A DNA stretch of 39,891 nucleotides, from the sequence record OR424387.1; one strand, given 5' to 3'. The position numbers and the translations under genes were made by a program. A model generated the notes under the pieces. It was not told the origin of the DNA and did not search any database. It was given only the letters and a program-made list of their open reading frames with translations. Origin of the DNA: Escherichia phage HEMP4. This document shows, in pieces, positions 2,257 through 39,891 of the stretch; the first letter of the stretch is position 1; every line of letters starts with the position of its first letter.

Positions 2257-2580
2257 GATGACCTCCTTTGAAGTTTTAGTTAGCAATCACCAGTTAGTAG
2301 CTGGTGATCGGGTGTCAACTAGAGCCTTCAAAGACGCTCCGGGCATATTCCCCTTTTGGGTATTGTATTACGCCTCTCCACCCGACCTTTGTACGGATGT
2401 GACTATGCCAAATTGCAGGCATAAAAAAGCCGCAAAGCTATCGGGTGCGGGTGACCGCTTTGAAGTTCTAGTGCGGTCAGTATGCGATAGCTCTGGCGGC
2501 ATTGTCAAATCATGCGCCACTGAGTCCAGCAATCTCTGCAATACCAATAGCGAGATAATCGCGATTCGTCAGGCGTGATT

Positions 2581-6345: not shown

Positions 6346-6360
6346 TTACCGTTGAGGTAA
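6346..6360. promoter_or_regulatory. Operator-like palindrome TTACC-N5-GGTAA (left operator region, site 1)
   Basis: ttaccgttgaggtaa, perfect inverted repeat, intergenic upstream of leftward operon. Confidence 0.55.
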
Positions 6361-6407: not shown

Positions 6408-6422
6408 TTACCCACAAGGTAA
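6408..6422. promoter_or_regulatory. Operator-like palindrome TTACC-N5-GGTAA (left operator region, site 2)
   Basis: ttacccacaaggtaa, perfect; 62 bp from site 1. Confidence 0.55.
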
Positions 6423-6479: not shown

Positions 6480-7064
6480 TTATTGTTTGCTTTTTTCGTT
6501 CTGGTTGATGACAAATTCAATGTAACTTTCGATCTTTGCTTTCTCGGTTTCGGGTAACAATGCGTAGCGCGAGCGGTCATAGTTGATAGTCGCAGGGTCG
6601 TGCGGGTGAATCAGTAATTCATAGCCGTGACGCCCGAATGCGGATGCAACATTCTCCAGGGTGGAAATGGAAACGCTGACCTCATTGTTTAACAGGCGGC
6701 TGATTGTCACCTGGGCGACGCCGGATGCGCGGTGAAGTTTTCCCTGTGTTGAAAGGTCGCGGCTTTCGCTCATCCAGCGTTCCAGGTTGTGAGCCGCCAG
6801 CTGACCAATGTCGCTTGGGCCGACAGGCTGAAAACCTTCCTGAGAAAGCGAGCGATCGATATCAAGCCAGTTACGGGGTTTATTGGCGGCAGCTTCAATT
6901 TTTCGCGCAACCTGGTCGCCGATAACCTTCTTACCAAGAGCCCAGCGGTTTACCAGATTTGCCTGAGTTCCAAGTTTTTCTGCCATCCGCGTCTGAACAC
7001 CATTGAATTCACGGTCGATCAAGTCGTTGAGATTTTGCCTGCGGACGTCCTGGATACTTTTCAT
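6480..7064 (-). CDS. Putative prophage repressor (HTH, no recognisable S24 peptidase domain)
   Basis: 194 aa, divergent from Cro-like gene with operator cluster between; N-terminal HTH-like segment TRMAEKLGTQANLVNRWALGKK; no Ala-Gly/Ser-Lys autocleavage module seen; no SD upstream of ATG. Confidence 0.55.
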   Translation of the reverse strand: MKSIQDVRRQNLNDLIDREFNGVQTRMAEKLGTQANLVNRWALGKKVIGDQVARKIEAAANKPRNWLDIDRSLSQEGFQPVGPSDIGQLAAHNLERWMSESRDLSTQGKLHRASGVAQVTISRLLNNEVSVSISTLENVASAFGRHGYELLIHPHDPATINYDRSRYALLPETEKAKIESYIEFVINQNEKSKQ

Positions 7065-7119: not shown

Positions 7120-7182
7120 TTACCCAACAGGTAAATGCACCCCATAGGTAACTATCCTTGATTTTTGTTACCTTATGGGTGA
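7120..7182. promoter_or_regulatory. Right operator cluster: three TTACC-N5-GGTAA-type sites (7120..7134 perfect, 7137..7151 8/10, 7168..7182 9/10)
   Basis: ttacccaacaggtaa, gcaccccataggtaa, ttaccttatgggtga within the 154-bp divergent intergenic region. Confidence 0.6.
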
Positions 7183-7810: not shown

Positions 7811-8621
7811 GGTTGAAGTTATCACTCCTGATAAACCTGAAATTTTTCAGATAGCAGAAATTCTGGGTATTGATCCAGATGCTGTTCTTGGAAAGCTGGT
7901 TCGTATATGGGCATGGGCTGACCAGCAAACAATAGACGGTAACGCTGGCAGCGTTACAAAAGGAGTACTTGATAGACTCGCTTTTATTACAGGATTTGCT
8001 GACGCCCTCATTAGCGTCGGATGGCTTGCTTATCATGACGGCAAACTAATTCTTCCAAACTTTGAGCGACACAATGGAGAATCATCGAAAAAACGTGCAC
8101 TTACGAATAGAAGAGTGGCAGAGCATCGAAAACGAGTAACGCAAAAAGTAACGCCAACAGCGTTACAAAAGGAGTTACCAGAGGAAGAGGAAGAGGAAGA
8201 TATATATAAAACCCCACACATAGCGCACGTGCGCGAGGGTGCTCCGACCAGTGAAGCGAACAGTACGCCGTTGCAGGTGGCAGAACCTGAATTTCTGGAT
8301 GGCCTGAGTGAACCCATCGGGAAATTTCCGATGACAGATGGCTGGCTACCGTCGCCAGATTTTCGGCGGCGTGCTGCGCTGTGGGGAACGGCCCTGCCGG
8401 AACCGGAATTTACACCTGCTGAACTTGCTGCATTCCGGGATTACTGGATGGCTGAGGGCAAAGTGTTCACGCAGGTTCAGTGGGAACAAAAATTCGCCAG
8501 GCACGTAAATCATATCAGGGGAAAATCAAAAAATGCCGGGAAAAGCGATGAGCTTGACTGGAATAACACTGACTGGATAGAAGGGGTGTGGGATGAAATC
8601 AACTCCAGAACTTCTCAATGA
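7791..8621 (+). CDS. Replication initiation protein (O-like position, DnaT-like C-terminal region)
   Basis: ATG at 7791 with AAGAGGGG SD; occupies O position upstream of P-like gene; contains iteron-like DNA repeats; C-terminal AELAAFRDYWMAEGKVFTQVQWEQKFARHV resembles DnaT-like domain. Confidence 0.55.
   Translation: MASSWIKVEVITPDKPEIFQIAEILGIDPDAVLGKLVRIWAWADQQTIDGNAGSVTKGVLDRLAFITGFADALISVGWLAYHDGKLILPNFERHNGESSKKRALTNRRVAEHRKRVTQKVTPTALQKELPEEEEEEDIYKTPHIAHVREGAPTSEANSTPLQVAEPEFLDGLSEPIGKFPMTDGWLPSPDFRRRAALWGTALPEPEFTPAELAAFRDYWMAEGKVFTQVQWEQKFARHVNHIRGKSKNAGKSDELDWNNTDWIEGVWDEINSRTSQ
7939..7966. repeat. Iteron-like element 1 (GTAACGCTGGCAGCGTTACAAAAGGAGT)
   Basis: 28-bp sequence with internal inverted repeat AACGCTG/CAGCGTT; repeated at 8148..8175 in a different reading frame. 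Confidence 0.5.
8148..8175. repeat. Iteron-like element 2 (GTAACGCCAACAGCGTTACAAAAGGAGT), followed by (GAGGAA)x3 and AT-rich tract
   Basis: Near-identical to 7939..7966; extra AGTAACGC half-site at 8135..8142; (gaggaa)3 at 8181..8198 then tatatataaaa. Confidence 0.5.
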
Positions 8622-9369
8622 GTACGATCGCTTACGTGAGCATGGTGTTGCTGTGCATGAAGAGCGGCGTGACAGCAATGGCAAAAAGGAGCAGGTTGCT
8701 AGAATTTTCAATGAACTATTTGTCCAGTTACAGGCTGCATTTCCTGCAAGCGTTTCGACCATAAGGGAGCAGAACAAACTTAATGAATTCCGTAAGCAAT
8801 GGATGCTTGCGTTTCTGGAGAATGGGATCACTACAATGGAACAGGTTAACGCTGGTATGCGCCACGCCCGCGCCAGTGAATCTCCGTTCTGGCCGTCGCC
8901 AGGGCAATTCATCAAGTGGTGCAAAGACAGCAAGATGGTTCTTGGCGTCACCATTGACGATGTGATGGCGGAGTTTCACCGGTACAGCAAGGAAAAAAGT
9001 TTATATCCTGGTGGTCCCGAAAGATTCCCGTGGCGACATCCGGTTATGTACTGGGTCGTATGTGATACCCGCCGTGCAATGTATCAGCGCCAGCTTAGCG
9101 AGATTGAGGTTGAGAAACACGCGCGCAGGCTGCTCGATGATTGGGCGAAAAAGGTGGCTTCCGGACAGCAGATACCCGATCCGGTGATCAGCATACAGGC
9201 AAAGCCAGAACCCATGAGTACGCCTCCTGACACTGGGAGAGACGTTTACCATCCACCAGGGCGAAGTTTCGGGTGCATGCCTAACGCCGCCACCCTGGGG
9301 GGAATAACACCGGCGCAGTGGCTGATAGAGGAATACAGGCGGGGAAAGGCGGCAGGATTTATCAAGTAA
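8593..9369 (+). CDS. Replication protein P-like helicase loader
   Basis: 258 aa; NGITTMEQVNAGMR...PSPGQFIKWC closely resembles conserved core of lambda P. Confidence 0.8.
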   Translation: MKSTPELLNEYDRLREHGVAVHEERRDSNGKKEQVARIFNELFVQLQAAFPASVSTIREQNKLNEFRKQWMLAFLENGITTMEQVNAGMRHARASESPFWPSPGQFIKWCKDSKMVLGVTIDDVMAEFHRYSKEKSLYPGGPERFPWRHPVMYWVVCDTRRAMYQRQLSEIEVEKHARRLLDDWAKKVASGQQIPDPVISIQAKPEPMSTPPDTGRDVYHPPGRSFGCMPNAATLGGITPAQWLIEEYRRGKAAGFIK

Positions 9370-9468: not shown

Positions 9469-9483
9469 TTACCTAAGGGGTAA
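9469..9483. promoter_or_regulatory. Operator-like palindrome TTACC-N5-GGTAA overlapping RBS region of 9487 gene
   Basis: ttacctaaggggtaa, perfect, ends 4 nt before ATG. Confidence 0.5.
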
Positions 9484-9486
9484 ATC

Positions 9487-9831
9487 ATGAGAAAACAGAT
9501 ACAGGCTCTTGGTCGACTCAAAACAGGCCAAATGAACAAAACAGAATCTGCGTATTGCCAGCACCTTGAGCTGCGTAAACGTGCAGGAGAAATCGTCTGG
9601 TATCGATTTGAGGGTATCAAGCTGCGGTTAGCTGACAACACGTTCTATACGCCCGATTTTGCTGTGATGCTCGCCACCGGCGAGATGGAACTGCACGAAG
9701 TGAAAGGTTTCTGGACCGACGACGCCAGGGTGAAAACCAAAGTCGCCGCAGATCAGTATCCGTTCCGAATCATCGGGGTAACGGTTAAACCAAAGAAAGC
9801 AGGTGGTGGCTGGAACATCGAAGAGTTCTGA
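9487..9831 (+). CDS. DUF1064-like phage protein (PD-(D/E)XK-like fold)
   Basis: 114 aa; YTPDFAV...ELHEVKG pattern typical of DUF1064 proteins found beside replication genes. Confidence 0.6.
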   Translation: MRKQIQALGRLKTGQMNKTESAYCQHLELRKRAGEIVWYRFEGIKLRLADNTFYTPDFAVMLATGEMELHEVKGFWTDDARVKTKVAADQYPFRIIGVTVKPKKAGGGWNIEEF

Positions 9832-15622: not shown

Positions 15623-15820
15623 GATCTCACCTTAAAAAAATGCCCAGCGAACCGGGCGAACTGGAAGCAATGAGTTATGCCTTCCGTGGCTGTACGGGTT
15701 TACAGCATGAAGTCATCGCAATGGCGTCCTGCTGTAAAAAGGGCGGTGATAGTCCTTCAAGGGAAACCATCACCGCCAAGCACCTGGAACTTCTGGCATC
15801 ACGGTCCTTAGGCGTGATTC

Positions 15821-15897
15821 TGGCGCGGCATGCAGGATTCGAACCTGCGACCAACCGCTTAGAAGGCGGTTGCTCTGTCCAACTGAGCTAATGCCAC
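15821..15897 (-). tRNA. tRNA-Arg (anticodon UCU)
   Basis: Reverse complement folds as cloverleaf: acceptor GTGGCAT/ATGCCGC (one G-U), D-arm GCTC-AGTTGGACA-GAGC, anticodon stem ACCGC/GCGGT with loop CTTCTAA (anticodon TCT), T-arm GCAGG-TTCGAAT-CCTGC, discriminator G, CCA end; 77 nt. Confidence 0.85.
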
Positions 15898-20217: not shown

Positions 20218-20268
20218 CGCCTGTTATTAACCTGTGGGTCGTAACAGACCCACTAATGGAGAAAGAAG

Positions 20269-33054: not shown

Positions 33055-33083
33055 GTCCACAAAAAAGCCCGCAGCGCGGGCTA
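33055..33083 (-). terminator. Rho-independent terminator for moron cassette
   Basis: On minus strand TAG-CCCGC-gct-GCGGGC followed by TTTTTT; stop codon embedded in stem. Confidence 0.7.
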
Positions 33084-33521
33084 TTCTTCTTCATCATTAA
33101 AAAGCGGATTGTTGTTTCCATCTGATGAAAGGAAAGGTATGTGTTCTCTTGAAAATCCAACAATGACAATTTCATTATCATTTTTTGCATAATGAATGCA
33201 TTCATTAGAATGCCTTCCGCTAGGGTTGAAATTTAAGTTAATGGTATAATTCTTAAATGTGTTTGGATACCATGTTGGCCCACAATGATAATGCCAATAA
33301 TTCTCTTGCTCATAATTGTCTGAGCCGGGAATTTTATCATGGTTATCATCAACCCATGAGGGCTTGTTTTTTCCAACAAGCGCCCTTCCATTGGCAACAT
33401 CCTCTAAAAAACTTTGTATGATTTTTATTTCATCATCAGTAAGGAAAGGTCCGTCTACAGCGAAAGGGGTGTTGCTTTCCCCATGTAGAAAACTATTAGA
33501 TATTCTAATGTTAAACTTCAA
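33081..33521 (-). CDS. Hypothetical moron protein B (146 aa), AT-rich, acidic C-terminus, probable TTG start
   Basis: ORF track 33081..33662; no in-frame ATG after upstream gene stop; TTG at 33521 sits 7 nt after AGGAG; Asn/Asp/Glu-rich with HYHCGP and C-terminal NDEEE. Confidence 0.5.
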   Translation of the reverse strand: MKFNIRISNSFLHGESNTPFAVDGPFLTDDEIKIIQSFLEDVANGRALVGKNKPSWVDDNHDKIPGSDNYEQENYWHYHCGPTWYPNTFKNYTINLNFNPSGRHSNECIHYAKNDNEIVIVGFSREHIPFLSSDGNNNPLFNDEEE

Positions 33522-33541
33522 GGAAAACTCCTGATGTGCTT

Positions 33542-33709
33542 CTATTTGGAGCGAAATGCCGCCTTGAAGTCGCTGAAAGATGTTCCTGTCTGGTAAACCA
33601 TATCCTTGTCGCGCTCTTTGCTTGCGCGGCCAAGCATAACTTTTCCAATGACATCCCAGCATTGCTTGGCTTGTTCATTGTGCTGAGTACGATTTTTCAA
33701 CGCTGTCAT
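33542..33709 (-). CDS. Hypothetical small moron protein A (55 aa)
   Basis: Hand-translated MTALKNRTQHNEQAKQCWDVIGKVMLGRASKERDKDMVYQTGTSFSDFKAAFRSK; GGAGG SD 6 nt upstream; operator-like site just upstream. Confidence 0.4.
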   Translation of the reverse strand: MTALKNRTQHNEQAKQCWDVIGKVMLGRASKERDKDMVYQTGTSFSDFKAAFRSK

Positions 33710-33721
33710 ATCGCGCCTCCT

Positions 33722-33736
33722 TTACCTTTAAGGTAA
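33722..33736. promoter_or_regulatory. Operator-like palindrome TTACC-N5-GGTAA upstream of moron cassette
   Basis: ttacctttaaggtaa, perfect, followed by TATTAC. Confidence 0.5.
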
Positions 33737-33779: not shown

Positions 33780-34045
33780 GCACATCCCTGTGCCGCCGCC
33801 CGTCAGAAGAACCCAGCCTTGTCGTTGATGTACTCCGCGTGGGTCTGGATATCACGCAGGCATTTGCTCACACCGACGATGTAGCAGAACATGGTGGTCA
33901 GCTCCGCCGCCGCGCCCGATACGTCGTGCCCGTCTTCCTGTAACTGGTTCAGCAGATTCATCAGCAGTGAGTTCTCCGTCAGGCCGAGAACACCAGACGG
34001 CGAATGAATCAGGCTACGGTAGCCGGGCTTCAGTGGGGCACTGTA
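33780..34045. repeat. Internal direct repeat copy B (matches 1578..1842)
   Basis: Same as copy A. Confidence 0.85.
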
Positions 34046-34513
34046 GGTTTTGTTCTCTATCTTCATCGCCTGCATTACTGCTGACGCCGTGGCGTTGGCT
34101 ACCTGGTCGGCAACCATCTTTATGCGTTCTTCCTGCGGGAGCGAGTTTTTAATGTAACTTCCGGTGCGGCGGATCTGAGGAAGAACCTCACCTGTAACCC
34201 ATTTACGAAAGCGGTAGGGGATAGTGCCTGGTGTCACTGCGTCGCGGCAGCGGAGGATCAGTGTGTAGAGGCCTGACTCGGAGATGATGTTGATCTCTTT
34301 TACTCGGCTGTCAAAAATTGCACGATGTTCATGCCCTATGTTGAACATAGACCTTTCATCATCATCCAGTTTTTCAAGTGCTTGGGTGACGTTTTGGATG
34401 CGCAGCGCACTACAAACGTCTTGGGCTACAAACCATGGTTGGCCATCGATAATGATGGAACGGATAGGGTTAACAGATTCAAATTTGAAGATGGCAGTTT
34501 GAGCATTAGCCAT
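33803..34513 (-). CDS. Bro-N domain antirepressor-like protein with shared C-terminal domain
   Basis: ATG at 34513 (ORF track GTG 34528); N-terminal AIFKFESVNPIRSIIIDGQPWFVAQDVCSAL is classic Bro-N; C-terminal 80 aa identical to C-terminus of 1600..2256 gene. Confidence 0.75.
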   Translation of the reverse strand: MANAQTAIFKFESVNPIRSIIIDGQPWFVAQDVCSALRIQNVTQALEKLDDDERSMFNIGHEHRAIFDSRVKEINIISESGLYTLILRCRDAVTPGTIPYRFRKWVTGEVLPQIRRTGSYIKNSLPQEERIKMVADQVANATASAVMQAMKIENKTYSAPLKPGYRSLIHSPSGVLGLTENSLLMNLLNQLQEDGHDVSGAAAELTTMFCYIVGVSKCLRDIQTHAEYINDKAGFF

Positions 34514-34667
34514 GGTGGTTATCTCCACTTAGTGATTTTAATCACCACCGCAACGCCAATTACTGGTGGTGAACTGGACAAGGTTGGCGTACCGGCCTAA
34601 GTGGTACCGGCGTCCTTTCGGACCCCTGCCCAGCCCACCATAATTCGGATATAGCTGTGCTTAACGC

Positions 34668-34780
34668 ATAAAAAAACCACGTCTGGCGTGGTATGCGCCA
34701 CTTAGTAACTCGGGACGCCAATCCCGGCACTGGATTTTGCCAGTGCCTGATTACTATGGCACAAGAGGAGTGCGATGTAA
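34668..34780 (-). ncRNA. Candidate structured small RNA or leader upstream of Bro-N gene
   Basis: Minus-strand noncoding segment with stem-loops GGCACTGG-caaaat-CCAGTGCC and CGGGA-ttggcg-TCCCG, ending in terminator ACCACG-ccaga-CGTGGT plus U7; begins just downstream of operator-like site. Confidence 0.3.
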
Positions 34781-34782
34781 AT

Positions 34783-34797
34783 TTACCGCAAAGGTAA
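34783..34797. promoter_or_regulatory. Operator-like palindrome TTACC-N5-GGTAA
   Basis: ttaccgcaaaggtaa, perfect. Confidence 0.5.
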
Positions 34798-34828: not shown

Positions 34829-35086
34829 TTATCTGGTTTGCTTTCGTAATTGTTCGGCACAATAGTCGAGATGTGTTTGCAGATCCCGCATAGACATCTG
34901 TGAGCTGGTGACGTAGTTAATCAGTGCAGTCAGTTCGGCAAGTGGGCCATCGACATTAAATCCATCCTTATCGAGATCCCGGAGTAATTTCATCAAGTGC
35001 GATCCCTCCACCAGTGACCTGACGCCTCCCGGCGTGTGAATCCTTTCGGTAAATCCGTCTTCCAGTGGATAGTGATACTGCTGCAT
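34829..35086 (-). CDS. Small antirepressor-like protein (85 aa), free-standing homolog of the shared C-terminal domain; LexA box upstream
   Basis: ATG 35086 with GGAGAA SD (ORF track TTG 35104); IHTPGGVRSLVEGSHLMKLL...DGPLAELTALINYVTSSQMSMRDLQTHLDY aligns with [20 protein letters not shown]...[30 protein letters not shown] of the two larger proteins. Confidence 0.6.
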   Translation of the reverse strand: MQQYHYPLEDGFTERIHTPGGVRSLVEGSHLMKLLRDLDKDGFNVDGPLAELTALINYVTSSQMSMRDLQTHLDYCAEQLRKQTR

Positions 35087-35105
35087 CTTATCTTCTCCAT
35101 GCAAT

Positions 35106-35125
35106 AACTGTATAAATATACAGTA
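35106..35125. promoter_or_regulatory. LexA (SOS) box
   Basis: aaCTGTataaatatACAGta: CTGT-N8-ACAG with AT-rich spacer, matching consensus; 20 bp upstream of small Ant-like gene start. Confidence 0.7.
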
Positions 35126-35162
35126 TCAAATAATTTGTTTGCTATCCAGCACGTTTTGCAAA

Positions 35163-35177
35163 TCACCTGAAAGGTAA
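35163..35177. promoter_or_regulatory. Operator-like site (9/10 match, TCACC-N5-GGTAA)
   Basis: tcacctgaaaggtaa between LexA box and tailspike start. Confidence 0.4.
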
Positions 35178-35281
35178 TATCTTTTCGTATTTATGGGTTA
35201 TCTATCCATATGTGGTTTTTCAGGTAATAGAATAACCAGATATGCGGCGCAACGGGTGCTGCGACTATCTGGAGATTTAAC

Positions 35282-39764: not shown

Positions 39765-39891
39765 CATGGCATTTTTCATGGTACTGATTTCCGGTGACGG
39801 TATATAAAACGGTACGATAAAAATTGAGATTTGGAAAAATGTTATCACTCAATTGGTTATGGTTATCGTAAATAATTGAGTGGGAATGATT
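39765..39891. repeat. Terminal direct repeat, copy 2 (identical to 1..127)
   Basis: Exact match to window start. Confidence 0.9.

Follow-up and report, generated by a model that had tools for sequence, protein, structure and literature searches.

Our analysis suggests that the locus around the small ant gene of Escherichia phage HEMP4 is very probably the induction module of a phiV10/epsilon15-like prophage, and that it represents the same system as the Rep-Ant-LexA switch of phage SPC32H (Kim and Ryu, 2013, J Virol 87:11775; Kim et al., 2016, PNAS 113:E2480; PDB 5D50, 5D4Z). The window referred to throughout is the whole stretch of DNA analysed, 39,891 nucleotides in length (sequence record OR424387.1). 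A preliminary description had proposed a LexA-controlled small antirepressor directed against a non-cleavable repressor, and this idea is supported by the presence of an Ant 86% identical to that of SPC32H, a Rep homologue and a LexA box that aligns with the SPC32H box. The principle is already known and not new: a LexA-gated small antirepressor acting on a non-cleavable repressor has been worked out both genetically and structurally for the Salmonella homologue. The elements on which the comparison rests are the following:

34829..35086, minus strand: ant, encoding an 85-aa antirepressor of the SPC32H Ant family, with the ribosome binding site GGAG (35098-35095) 8 nt before the ATG.

35106..35125, minus strand: LexA (SOS) box, the 20-mer TACTGTATATTTATACAGTT on the ant-sense strand, with the core CTGT-N8-ACAG at 35108-35123.

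35120..35148, minus strand: putative ant promoter, with the -35 element TGGATA (35148-35143), a 17-nt spacer and the -10 element TACTGT (35125-35120).

6480..7064, minus strand: rep, encoding a 194-aa prophage repressor with two HTH-type domains, homologous to SPC32H Rep.

In the lysogen, tetrameric Rep would occupy TTACC-N5-GGTAA operators at the heads of transcription units and keep the phage silent, while host LexA, bound to the SOS box at 35106-35125 over the -10 element and start of the ant promoter, would keep ant switched off. Lacking an autocleavage domain, Rep would be unable to sense RecA directly. DNA damage would activate RecA and provoke the self-cleavage of LexA, allowing ant to be transcribed; the 85-aa Ant would then bind Rep, split the DNA-binding tetramer into dimers and free the operators, turning on the lytic genes. 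This scheme follows what two later papers relate of the homologous system. One states that Ant is produced once LexA has cleaved itself, and that Ant inhibits the repressor through direct protein-protein interaction (PMC7380047, citing Kim and Ryu, 2013); in the other, Rep binds DNA as a tetramer, which an Ant tetramer disrupts by binding two Rep dimers (PMC9638917, citing Kim et al., 2016). For the window prophage itself, we infer LexA binding, the promoter assignment and the contact of Ant with a more divergent Rep by analogy with this system.

The window corresponds to one complete integrated prophage of the phiV10/epsilon15 type (genus Uetakevirus), to judge from the 17-bp att core ATTGAGTGGGAATGATT that is repeated at both of its ends, at positions 111-127 and 39875-39891. 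This att core is the one reported for phiV10, epsilon15 and ZX5, and the att site of ZX5 has been placed at the 3' end of guaA (PMC9782041). The DNA around the ant locus is 92-95% identical to that of the E. coli phages phiV10, TL-2011b, vB_EcoP_ZX5 and phiv142-3, all of which belong to the genus Uetakevirus (epsilon15-like), as does SPC32H. In the window and in the Uetakevirus relatives compared, SPC32H included, ant is divergent from the tailspike gene.

The strongest evidence for the nature of the small gene comes from its product, which aligned over residues 2-84 with residues 3-85 of chain E of PDB 5D50 ('Anti-repressor protein'; E = 1.4e-46). Ant is 86% identical to SPC32H Ant, 83% to gp19 of epsilon15, 98.8% to the phiV10 protein and 100% to that of phiv142-3. 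It is assigned to PHROG 450, a family that carries the label 'unknown function', and had no significant match in Pfam or NCBIfam; in Pfam, neither a Bro-N or ANT domain nor DinI or any other family rose above threshold. PADLOC likewise returned no match for Ant, for the Bro-N protein encoded downstream or for the neighbouring cargo genes, and we found no experiment in the literature on the small ant gene of any E. coli member.

Rep, for its part, aligned end to end with chain A of PDB 5D50 ('Repressor'; E = 3.5e-42), and each of the 34 phage records with an Ant gene encodes a Rep homologue too. In Pfam, the window Rep matched HTH families alone, with no match to Peptidase_S24 (autocleavage), which bears out the earlier remark that this repressor candidate has no autocleavage domain; the possession of two HTH-type domains and the absence of an S24 domain are common to the Rep family of both phages. 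The window Rep differs from the SPC32H protein in being only 42.5% identical to it (45% in the N-terminal and 41% in the C-terminal domain), and contact between Ant and Rep in the window prophage would thus be an extrapolation from the more divergent SPC32H Rep. The divergence of the two proteins is in fact discordant: compared with the Salmonella phages, Ant is 83-87% identical and Rep only 43%, the corresponding values for the Klebsiella phages being 60-64% and 45%. Either Ant contacts a conserved surface of Rep, or the ant and rep modules have been exchanged separately by recombination. Sixty-six Rep residues, located in both domains, are invariant across four lineages, making a conserved Ant-binding surface plausible; they include the NLVNRW motif of the N-terminal domain, whose invariance would fit the operator core that the lineages share.

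The second line of evidence is the LexA box. Its core, CTGTATAAATATACAG (35108-35123), lies within the 20-mer TACTGTATATTTATACAGTT, which matches the LexA consensus TACTGTATATATATACAGTA at 18/20 positions, the 2 mismatches both falling outside the CTGT/ACAG cores, and which is the sole site in the window with ≤3 mismatches to this consensus. The consensus SOS box announced at 35108..35123 is therefore confirmed as a near-consensus site unique in the window, and its position, given as about 20 bp upstream of an 85-aa gene on the minus strand, is equally correct, with 21 nt between the end of the box core and the ant ATG. The box aligns base for base with that of SPC32H, where it occupies the equal position over the ant promoter, and is found at the equal place in SPC32N. 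Within the box, the SPC32N record departs from that of SPC32H at a single base (ACAG versus AAAG, a C to A change corresponding to window position 35110), a difference that we take to be the mutation that, in the 2013 abstract of Kim and Ryu, is said to lead to constitutive Ant synthesis and a virulent-like phage.

The position of the box is kept in seven relatives, phages of Escherichia, Salmonella, Enterobacter and Klebsiella, within a common layout consisting of a TTACC-N5-GGTAA palindrome, 14 bp, TGGATA, 17 bp, TACTGT as the beginning of the SOS box, the ribosome binding site and the ATG. The Klebsiella phages show variants of this layout, with 12 bp instead of 14, TGGAAA for TGGATA and TATATG for TACTGT. 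The spacer sequences diverge among the seven while the elements stay fixed, and on the strength of this conservation we assign TGGATA-17-TACTGT as the putative ant promoter, from which transcription would begin near 35113, within the box. TACTGT is also the opening hexamer of the SOS 20-mer, and the LexA box would overlap the ant promoter to the extent that this promoter assignment is right. The promoter was absent from the output of a generic sigma-70 consensus promoter scan. A different candidate, TTGCAA (35161-35156)-17-ACAAAT, was dropped because its -10 element is not conserved in the relatives, whereas TGGATA-17-TACTGT is conserved in all seven.

The third line of evidence is the operator family. 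With ≤1 mismatch allowed, the window contains 14 copies of TTACC-N5-GGTAA where 0.63 would be expected, and none of 100 shuffles reached 14. The copies are distributed as follows:

261: operator before the integrase gene.

6346-6360 and 6408-6422: two operators 3' of rep, where the leftward early genes begin.

7120-7134 and 7168-7182: operator pair in the intergenic region between rep and the cro-like gene.

7505: operator after the cro-like gene.

9407 and 9469: operators between the ORFs 8593-9369 and 9487-9831.

13009 and 13027: operators before the small terminase gene.

16220: operator before the portal region.

33722 and 34783: operators flanking the Bro-N gene region; the second, at 34783-34797, is a perfect copy (TTACCGCAAAGGTAA) that follows the ant stop codon and abuts the -35 element of the isrK-like promoter.

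35163-35177: operator TCACCTGAAAGGTAA between the ant promoter and the tailspike promoter, with 9/10 of the specified bases of TTACC-N5-GGTAA.

The operators lie between genes, several of them as pairs 48-62 bp apart, and TTACC-N5-GGTAA is found at equivalent places in epsilon15 and SPC32H, the operator core being common to the window phage and SPC32H. In the GenBank record of epsilon15, several such sites are annotated as 'protein_bind: repressor', including one upstream of its ant homologue and those equivalent to the 6346/6408 pair (32479, 32554 and 32616). These 14 intergenic copies suggest that one repressor could directly gate early, late and accessory units. By our own inspection of the sequence, the operator at 7168-7182 appears to lie in the spacer of a rightward promoter-like element, TTGATT...GAATAT. 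As a separate observation, the gene that starts at 9487 has its Shine-Dalgarno sequence within the operator at 9469-9483 (TTACCTAAGGGGTAA), an overlap that also occurs in epsilon15 (35969) and SPC32H (36034).

The part of the layout that lends itself most readily to two interpretations is the operator at 35163-35177. The preliminary description had noted an operator-like site here, near ant, and the site is a real one: it is a member of the 14-copy family, it is conserved, and its epsilon15 equivalent is annotated as repressor-binding. In a departure from SPC32H, it has one mismatch to the operator core (GGTGA), and it is present in all seven relatives, 14 bp upstream of the ant -35 element in five and 12 bp upstream in the two Klebsiella phages. 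The chances that it signals dual control of ant by LexA and the phage repressor, as opposed to serving the divergent tailspike promoter, appear about even. That it is a Rep site for the tailspike promoter and not for ant, which would then be under the control of LexA alone, has in our view a probability just short of one half. The operator is centred near -57 relative to the predicted ant start, upstream of the putative -35 and not over the core promoter; the operators at the rep-proximal early promoters, by contrast, fall within the core promoter or adjoin it. Operators also precede other late units, namely the small terminase gene (13009/13027) and the portal region (16220), with equivalents annotated in epsilon15, and on the tailspike side, 28 bp away from the operator, there is a conserved promoter-like element:

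35205-35233, plus strand: candidate tailspike promoter-like element TCCATA-17-TAGAAT (TTCATA in SPC32H), with a conserved GGTAA half-operator in its spacer.

On the other hand, the fixed distance from the operator to the -35 element among the relatives suggests coupling to the ant promoter, and the second, perfect operator at 34783-34797, past the ant stop codon, could allow a Rep tetramer to bridge both sites. A further tailspike-directed candidate, TTGCAA-16-TATCTT with the operator in its spacer, was dropped, since its conservation does not extend to SPC32H or the Klebsiella phages.

The locus departs from both SPC32H and epsilon15 in what follows ant. The window ant has no terminator of its own, and transcription from it would enter a module consisting of two RNA elements and a gene for a larger protein with an Ant-like domain:

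34670..34746, minus strand: IsrK-family small RNA (Hfq-binding), a full-length match to Rfam RF01394 (67.2 bits; gathering score 50).

34562..34645, minus strand: C4-type antisense RNA element (the orf45'/C4 region of isrK-type loci), a full-length match to Rfam RF01695 (66 bits; gathering score 45).

33803..34513, minus strand: gene for a Bro-N protein of 236 aa, with an ATG at 34513 preceded by GGAG; the longest ORF starts at a GTG at 34528.

The isrK element has an intrinsic terminator of its own (stem 34692-34676, followed by a T run), which is the first terminator downstream of ant, none being present between ant and the IsrK module. It is also preceded by a promoter-like site, TTTACA-17-(TG)CATAGT (34781..34753), whose predicted start near 34746 coincides with the first base of the IsrK match. 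A 20-codon TTG ORF (34519-34581) stops 5 nt before the Bro-N ATG at 34513, and there is no clear equivalent of orf45. The window resembles the isrK-orf45-anrP locus of Gifsy-1 and the c4-icd-ant arrangement of P1 immI in having a full-length IsrK RNA, a C4 element and then the Bro-N gene, all on the same strand; at the Gifsy-1 locus, too, IsrK is followed by the C4/orf45' region and then by the antirepressor gene (PMC4825925). It differs from both in that a LexA-controlled gene stands immediately before the module, whose own promoter adjoins a Rep-type operator, and in that the C-terminus of its antirepressor is a paralogue of SPC32H Ant.

The Bro-N protein contains the Pfam Bro-N domain (E = 1e-19) and shares 43% identity with the small Ant over residues 160-233 (E = 2e-16). 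It belongs to PHROG 130 ('anti-repressor Ant'), its C-terminus also matching PHROG 450, and a 12-residue motif of the protein matches the Ants of the Klebsiella phages and not the resident small Ant. Because its C-terminal ~80 aa are an Ant paralogue, this protein (33803-34513) is likely to be a second antirepressor, for which it is at present a candidate. It is 85% identical to ORF4 of ZX5, overexpression of which lowered lysogen counts by about 1000-fold and shifted the phage towards lytic growth (PMC9782041). The gene is more variable than ant: the Ant-like domain is mostly missing from the shortened Bro-N protein of phiV10, the C-terminus of the Bro-N protein is joined to another N-terminal domain in phiv142-3, and both the IsrK/C4 module and the Bro-N/Ant-domain gene are absent from the SPC32H and epsilon15 genomes.

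It is possible, though we regard it as rather doubtful, that in the phiV10 lineage the SOS-gated Ant constitutes the first stage of a two-stage antirepressor circuit, with the Bro-N/Ant protein as the second. With no terminator after ant, transcripts released from LexA would run into the IsrK-type RNA and, on the Gifsy-1 precedent, this read-through would unlock translation of the downstream Bro-N protein; the operators that bracket ant and abut the isrK promoter would allow the loss of Rep to reinforce both stages. Such an arrangement, if it exists, would form a feed-forward and positive-feedback switch in which LexA, Rep and a small RNA are integrated through two proteins sharing a Rep-binding domain.

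The same observations could be read differently, the Bro-N/Ant-domain protein being the effective antirepressor of the E. coli lineage and the small Ant an auxiliary or redundant protein, or one aimed at the repressors of co-resident related prophages. We consider this improbable. It would account for the Ant-like domain at the C-terminus of the Bro-N protein and for the roughly 1000-fold effect of ZX5 ORF4 on lysogen counts, and the contrast between the 86% identity of Ant and the 43% identity of Rep in the E. coli and Salmonella lineages would be consistent with an Ant that is not tuned to the resident Rep. However, the sole LexA box of the window is found at the small ant gene and not at the Bro-N gene; the latter is absent from SPC32H and epsilon15 and truncated in phiV10, while the small ant is present in 34 of 34 records; and the 66 invariant residues in both domains of Rep are enough for a conserved Ant-binding surface. 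A 2022 study of the lysis-lysogeny proteins of ZX5, the one experimental paper on a near-identical E. coli phage, makes no mention of the small gene, LexA or SPC32H and ascribes antirepressor activity to the Bro-N protein (PMC9782041); given this attribution, the relative weight of the small Ant and the Bro-N protein could lie on either side. An SOS-gated small Ant directed against the resident Rep nonetheless remains the reading that we favour.

The notion that the palindrome is a chance inverted repeat in A+T-rich intergenic DNA, and that the small ORF is not SOS-regulated, is hardly credible and was rejected on the basis of shuffling and of conservation in the relatives: the bare motif CTGT-N8-ACAG does occur three times in the window (0.56 expected; 2 of 100 shuffles reached three), but 100 shuffles gave no site within three mismatches of the consensus, which the full 20-mer matches at 18/20 positions, the box keeps its position in phages of four host genera whose flanking spacers have diverged, and the homologous SPC32H box holds the one-base difference between SPC32H and SPC32N. 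The other two bare sites, at 15690-15705 and 20232-20247, have G+C-rich spacers and >3 mismatches to the 20-nt LexA consensus, and are probably due to chance.

Other phages offer more distant parallels, and those named at the outset were the Gifsy phages and Tum of coliphage 186. The C-terminal part of Tum is DinI-like, and SPC32H Ant is reportedly described by its authors, in the 2013 abstract, as structurally distinct from antirepressors of the Tum/Gifsy type. The logic is the same in 186 Tum and in the Gifsy/Fels-2 antirepressors GfoA and GfhA, where a small antirepressor under LexA repression contacts a non-cleavable repressor protein and thereby inactivates it (Lemire et al., 2011, PMC3121763). 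In this respect the comparison stands; as to descent it does not, since the closest kin of the small Ant are the Ants of the SPC32H/epsilon15 type. No sequence kinship with Tum or the Gifsy proteins was detected through Pfam and NCBIfam, and because the small Ant has no significant match in either collection, the Tum and Gifsy antirepressors are, on the family searches, its functional analogues and not its relatives. The immI region of P22 (mnt-arc-ant) shares with the window an antirepressor locus that adjoins the tailspike gene of a short-tailed temperate phage. It differs in being controlled by Mnt, Arc and sar RNA and not by LexA, and its proteins are unrelated to the small Ant; the P22 ant mutant is still SOS-inducible thanks to the cleavable C2 repressor (PMC7380047).

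Of 5426 complete E. coli genomes, about 390-534 carry the module, with ant annotated as 'hypothetical protein', and Ant homologues are said in the 2013 SPC32H paper to occur in many prophages. With the mechanism established, the gain here lies mainly in annotation: where ant is recognised, SOS-triggering antibiotics can be expected to induce the E. coli prophage concerned, and the gene responsible can be named. The prophages affected include phiV10-type phages of O157:H7, which are used as typing and reporter phages. New biology could come only from the way in which ant is wired to the IsrK/C4/Bro-N module.

Three further features of the window may be recorded:

15821-15897, minus strand: tRNA-Arg gene with the anticodon TCT; a tRNA-Arg is annotated in SPC32H too.

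2298-2387, minus strand: Rfam match to sRNA-Xcc1 (62.9 bits; gathering score 53), in the leftward region that follows the integrase gene.

33081-33662, minus strand: cargo gene of low G+C content (35-40%) adjoining the antirepressor locus, assigned to PHROG 5954 (unknown function).

The cargo gene had no match in Pfam or PADLOC, and the operator copy at 33722-33736 is situated just upstream of it.
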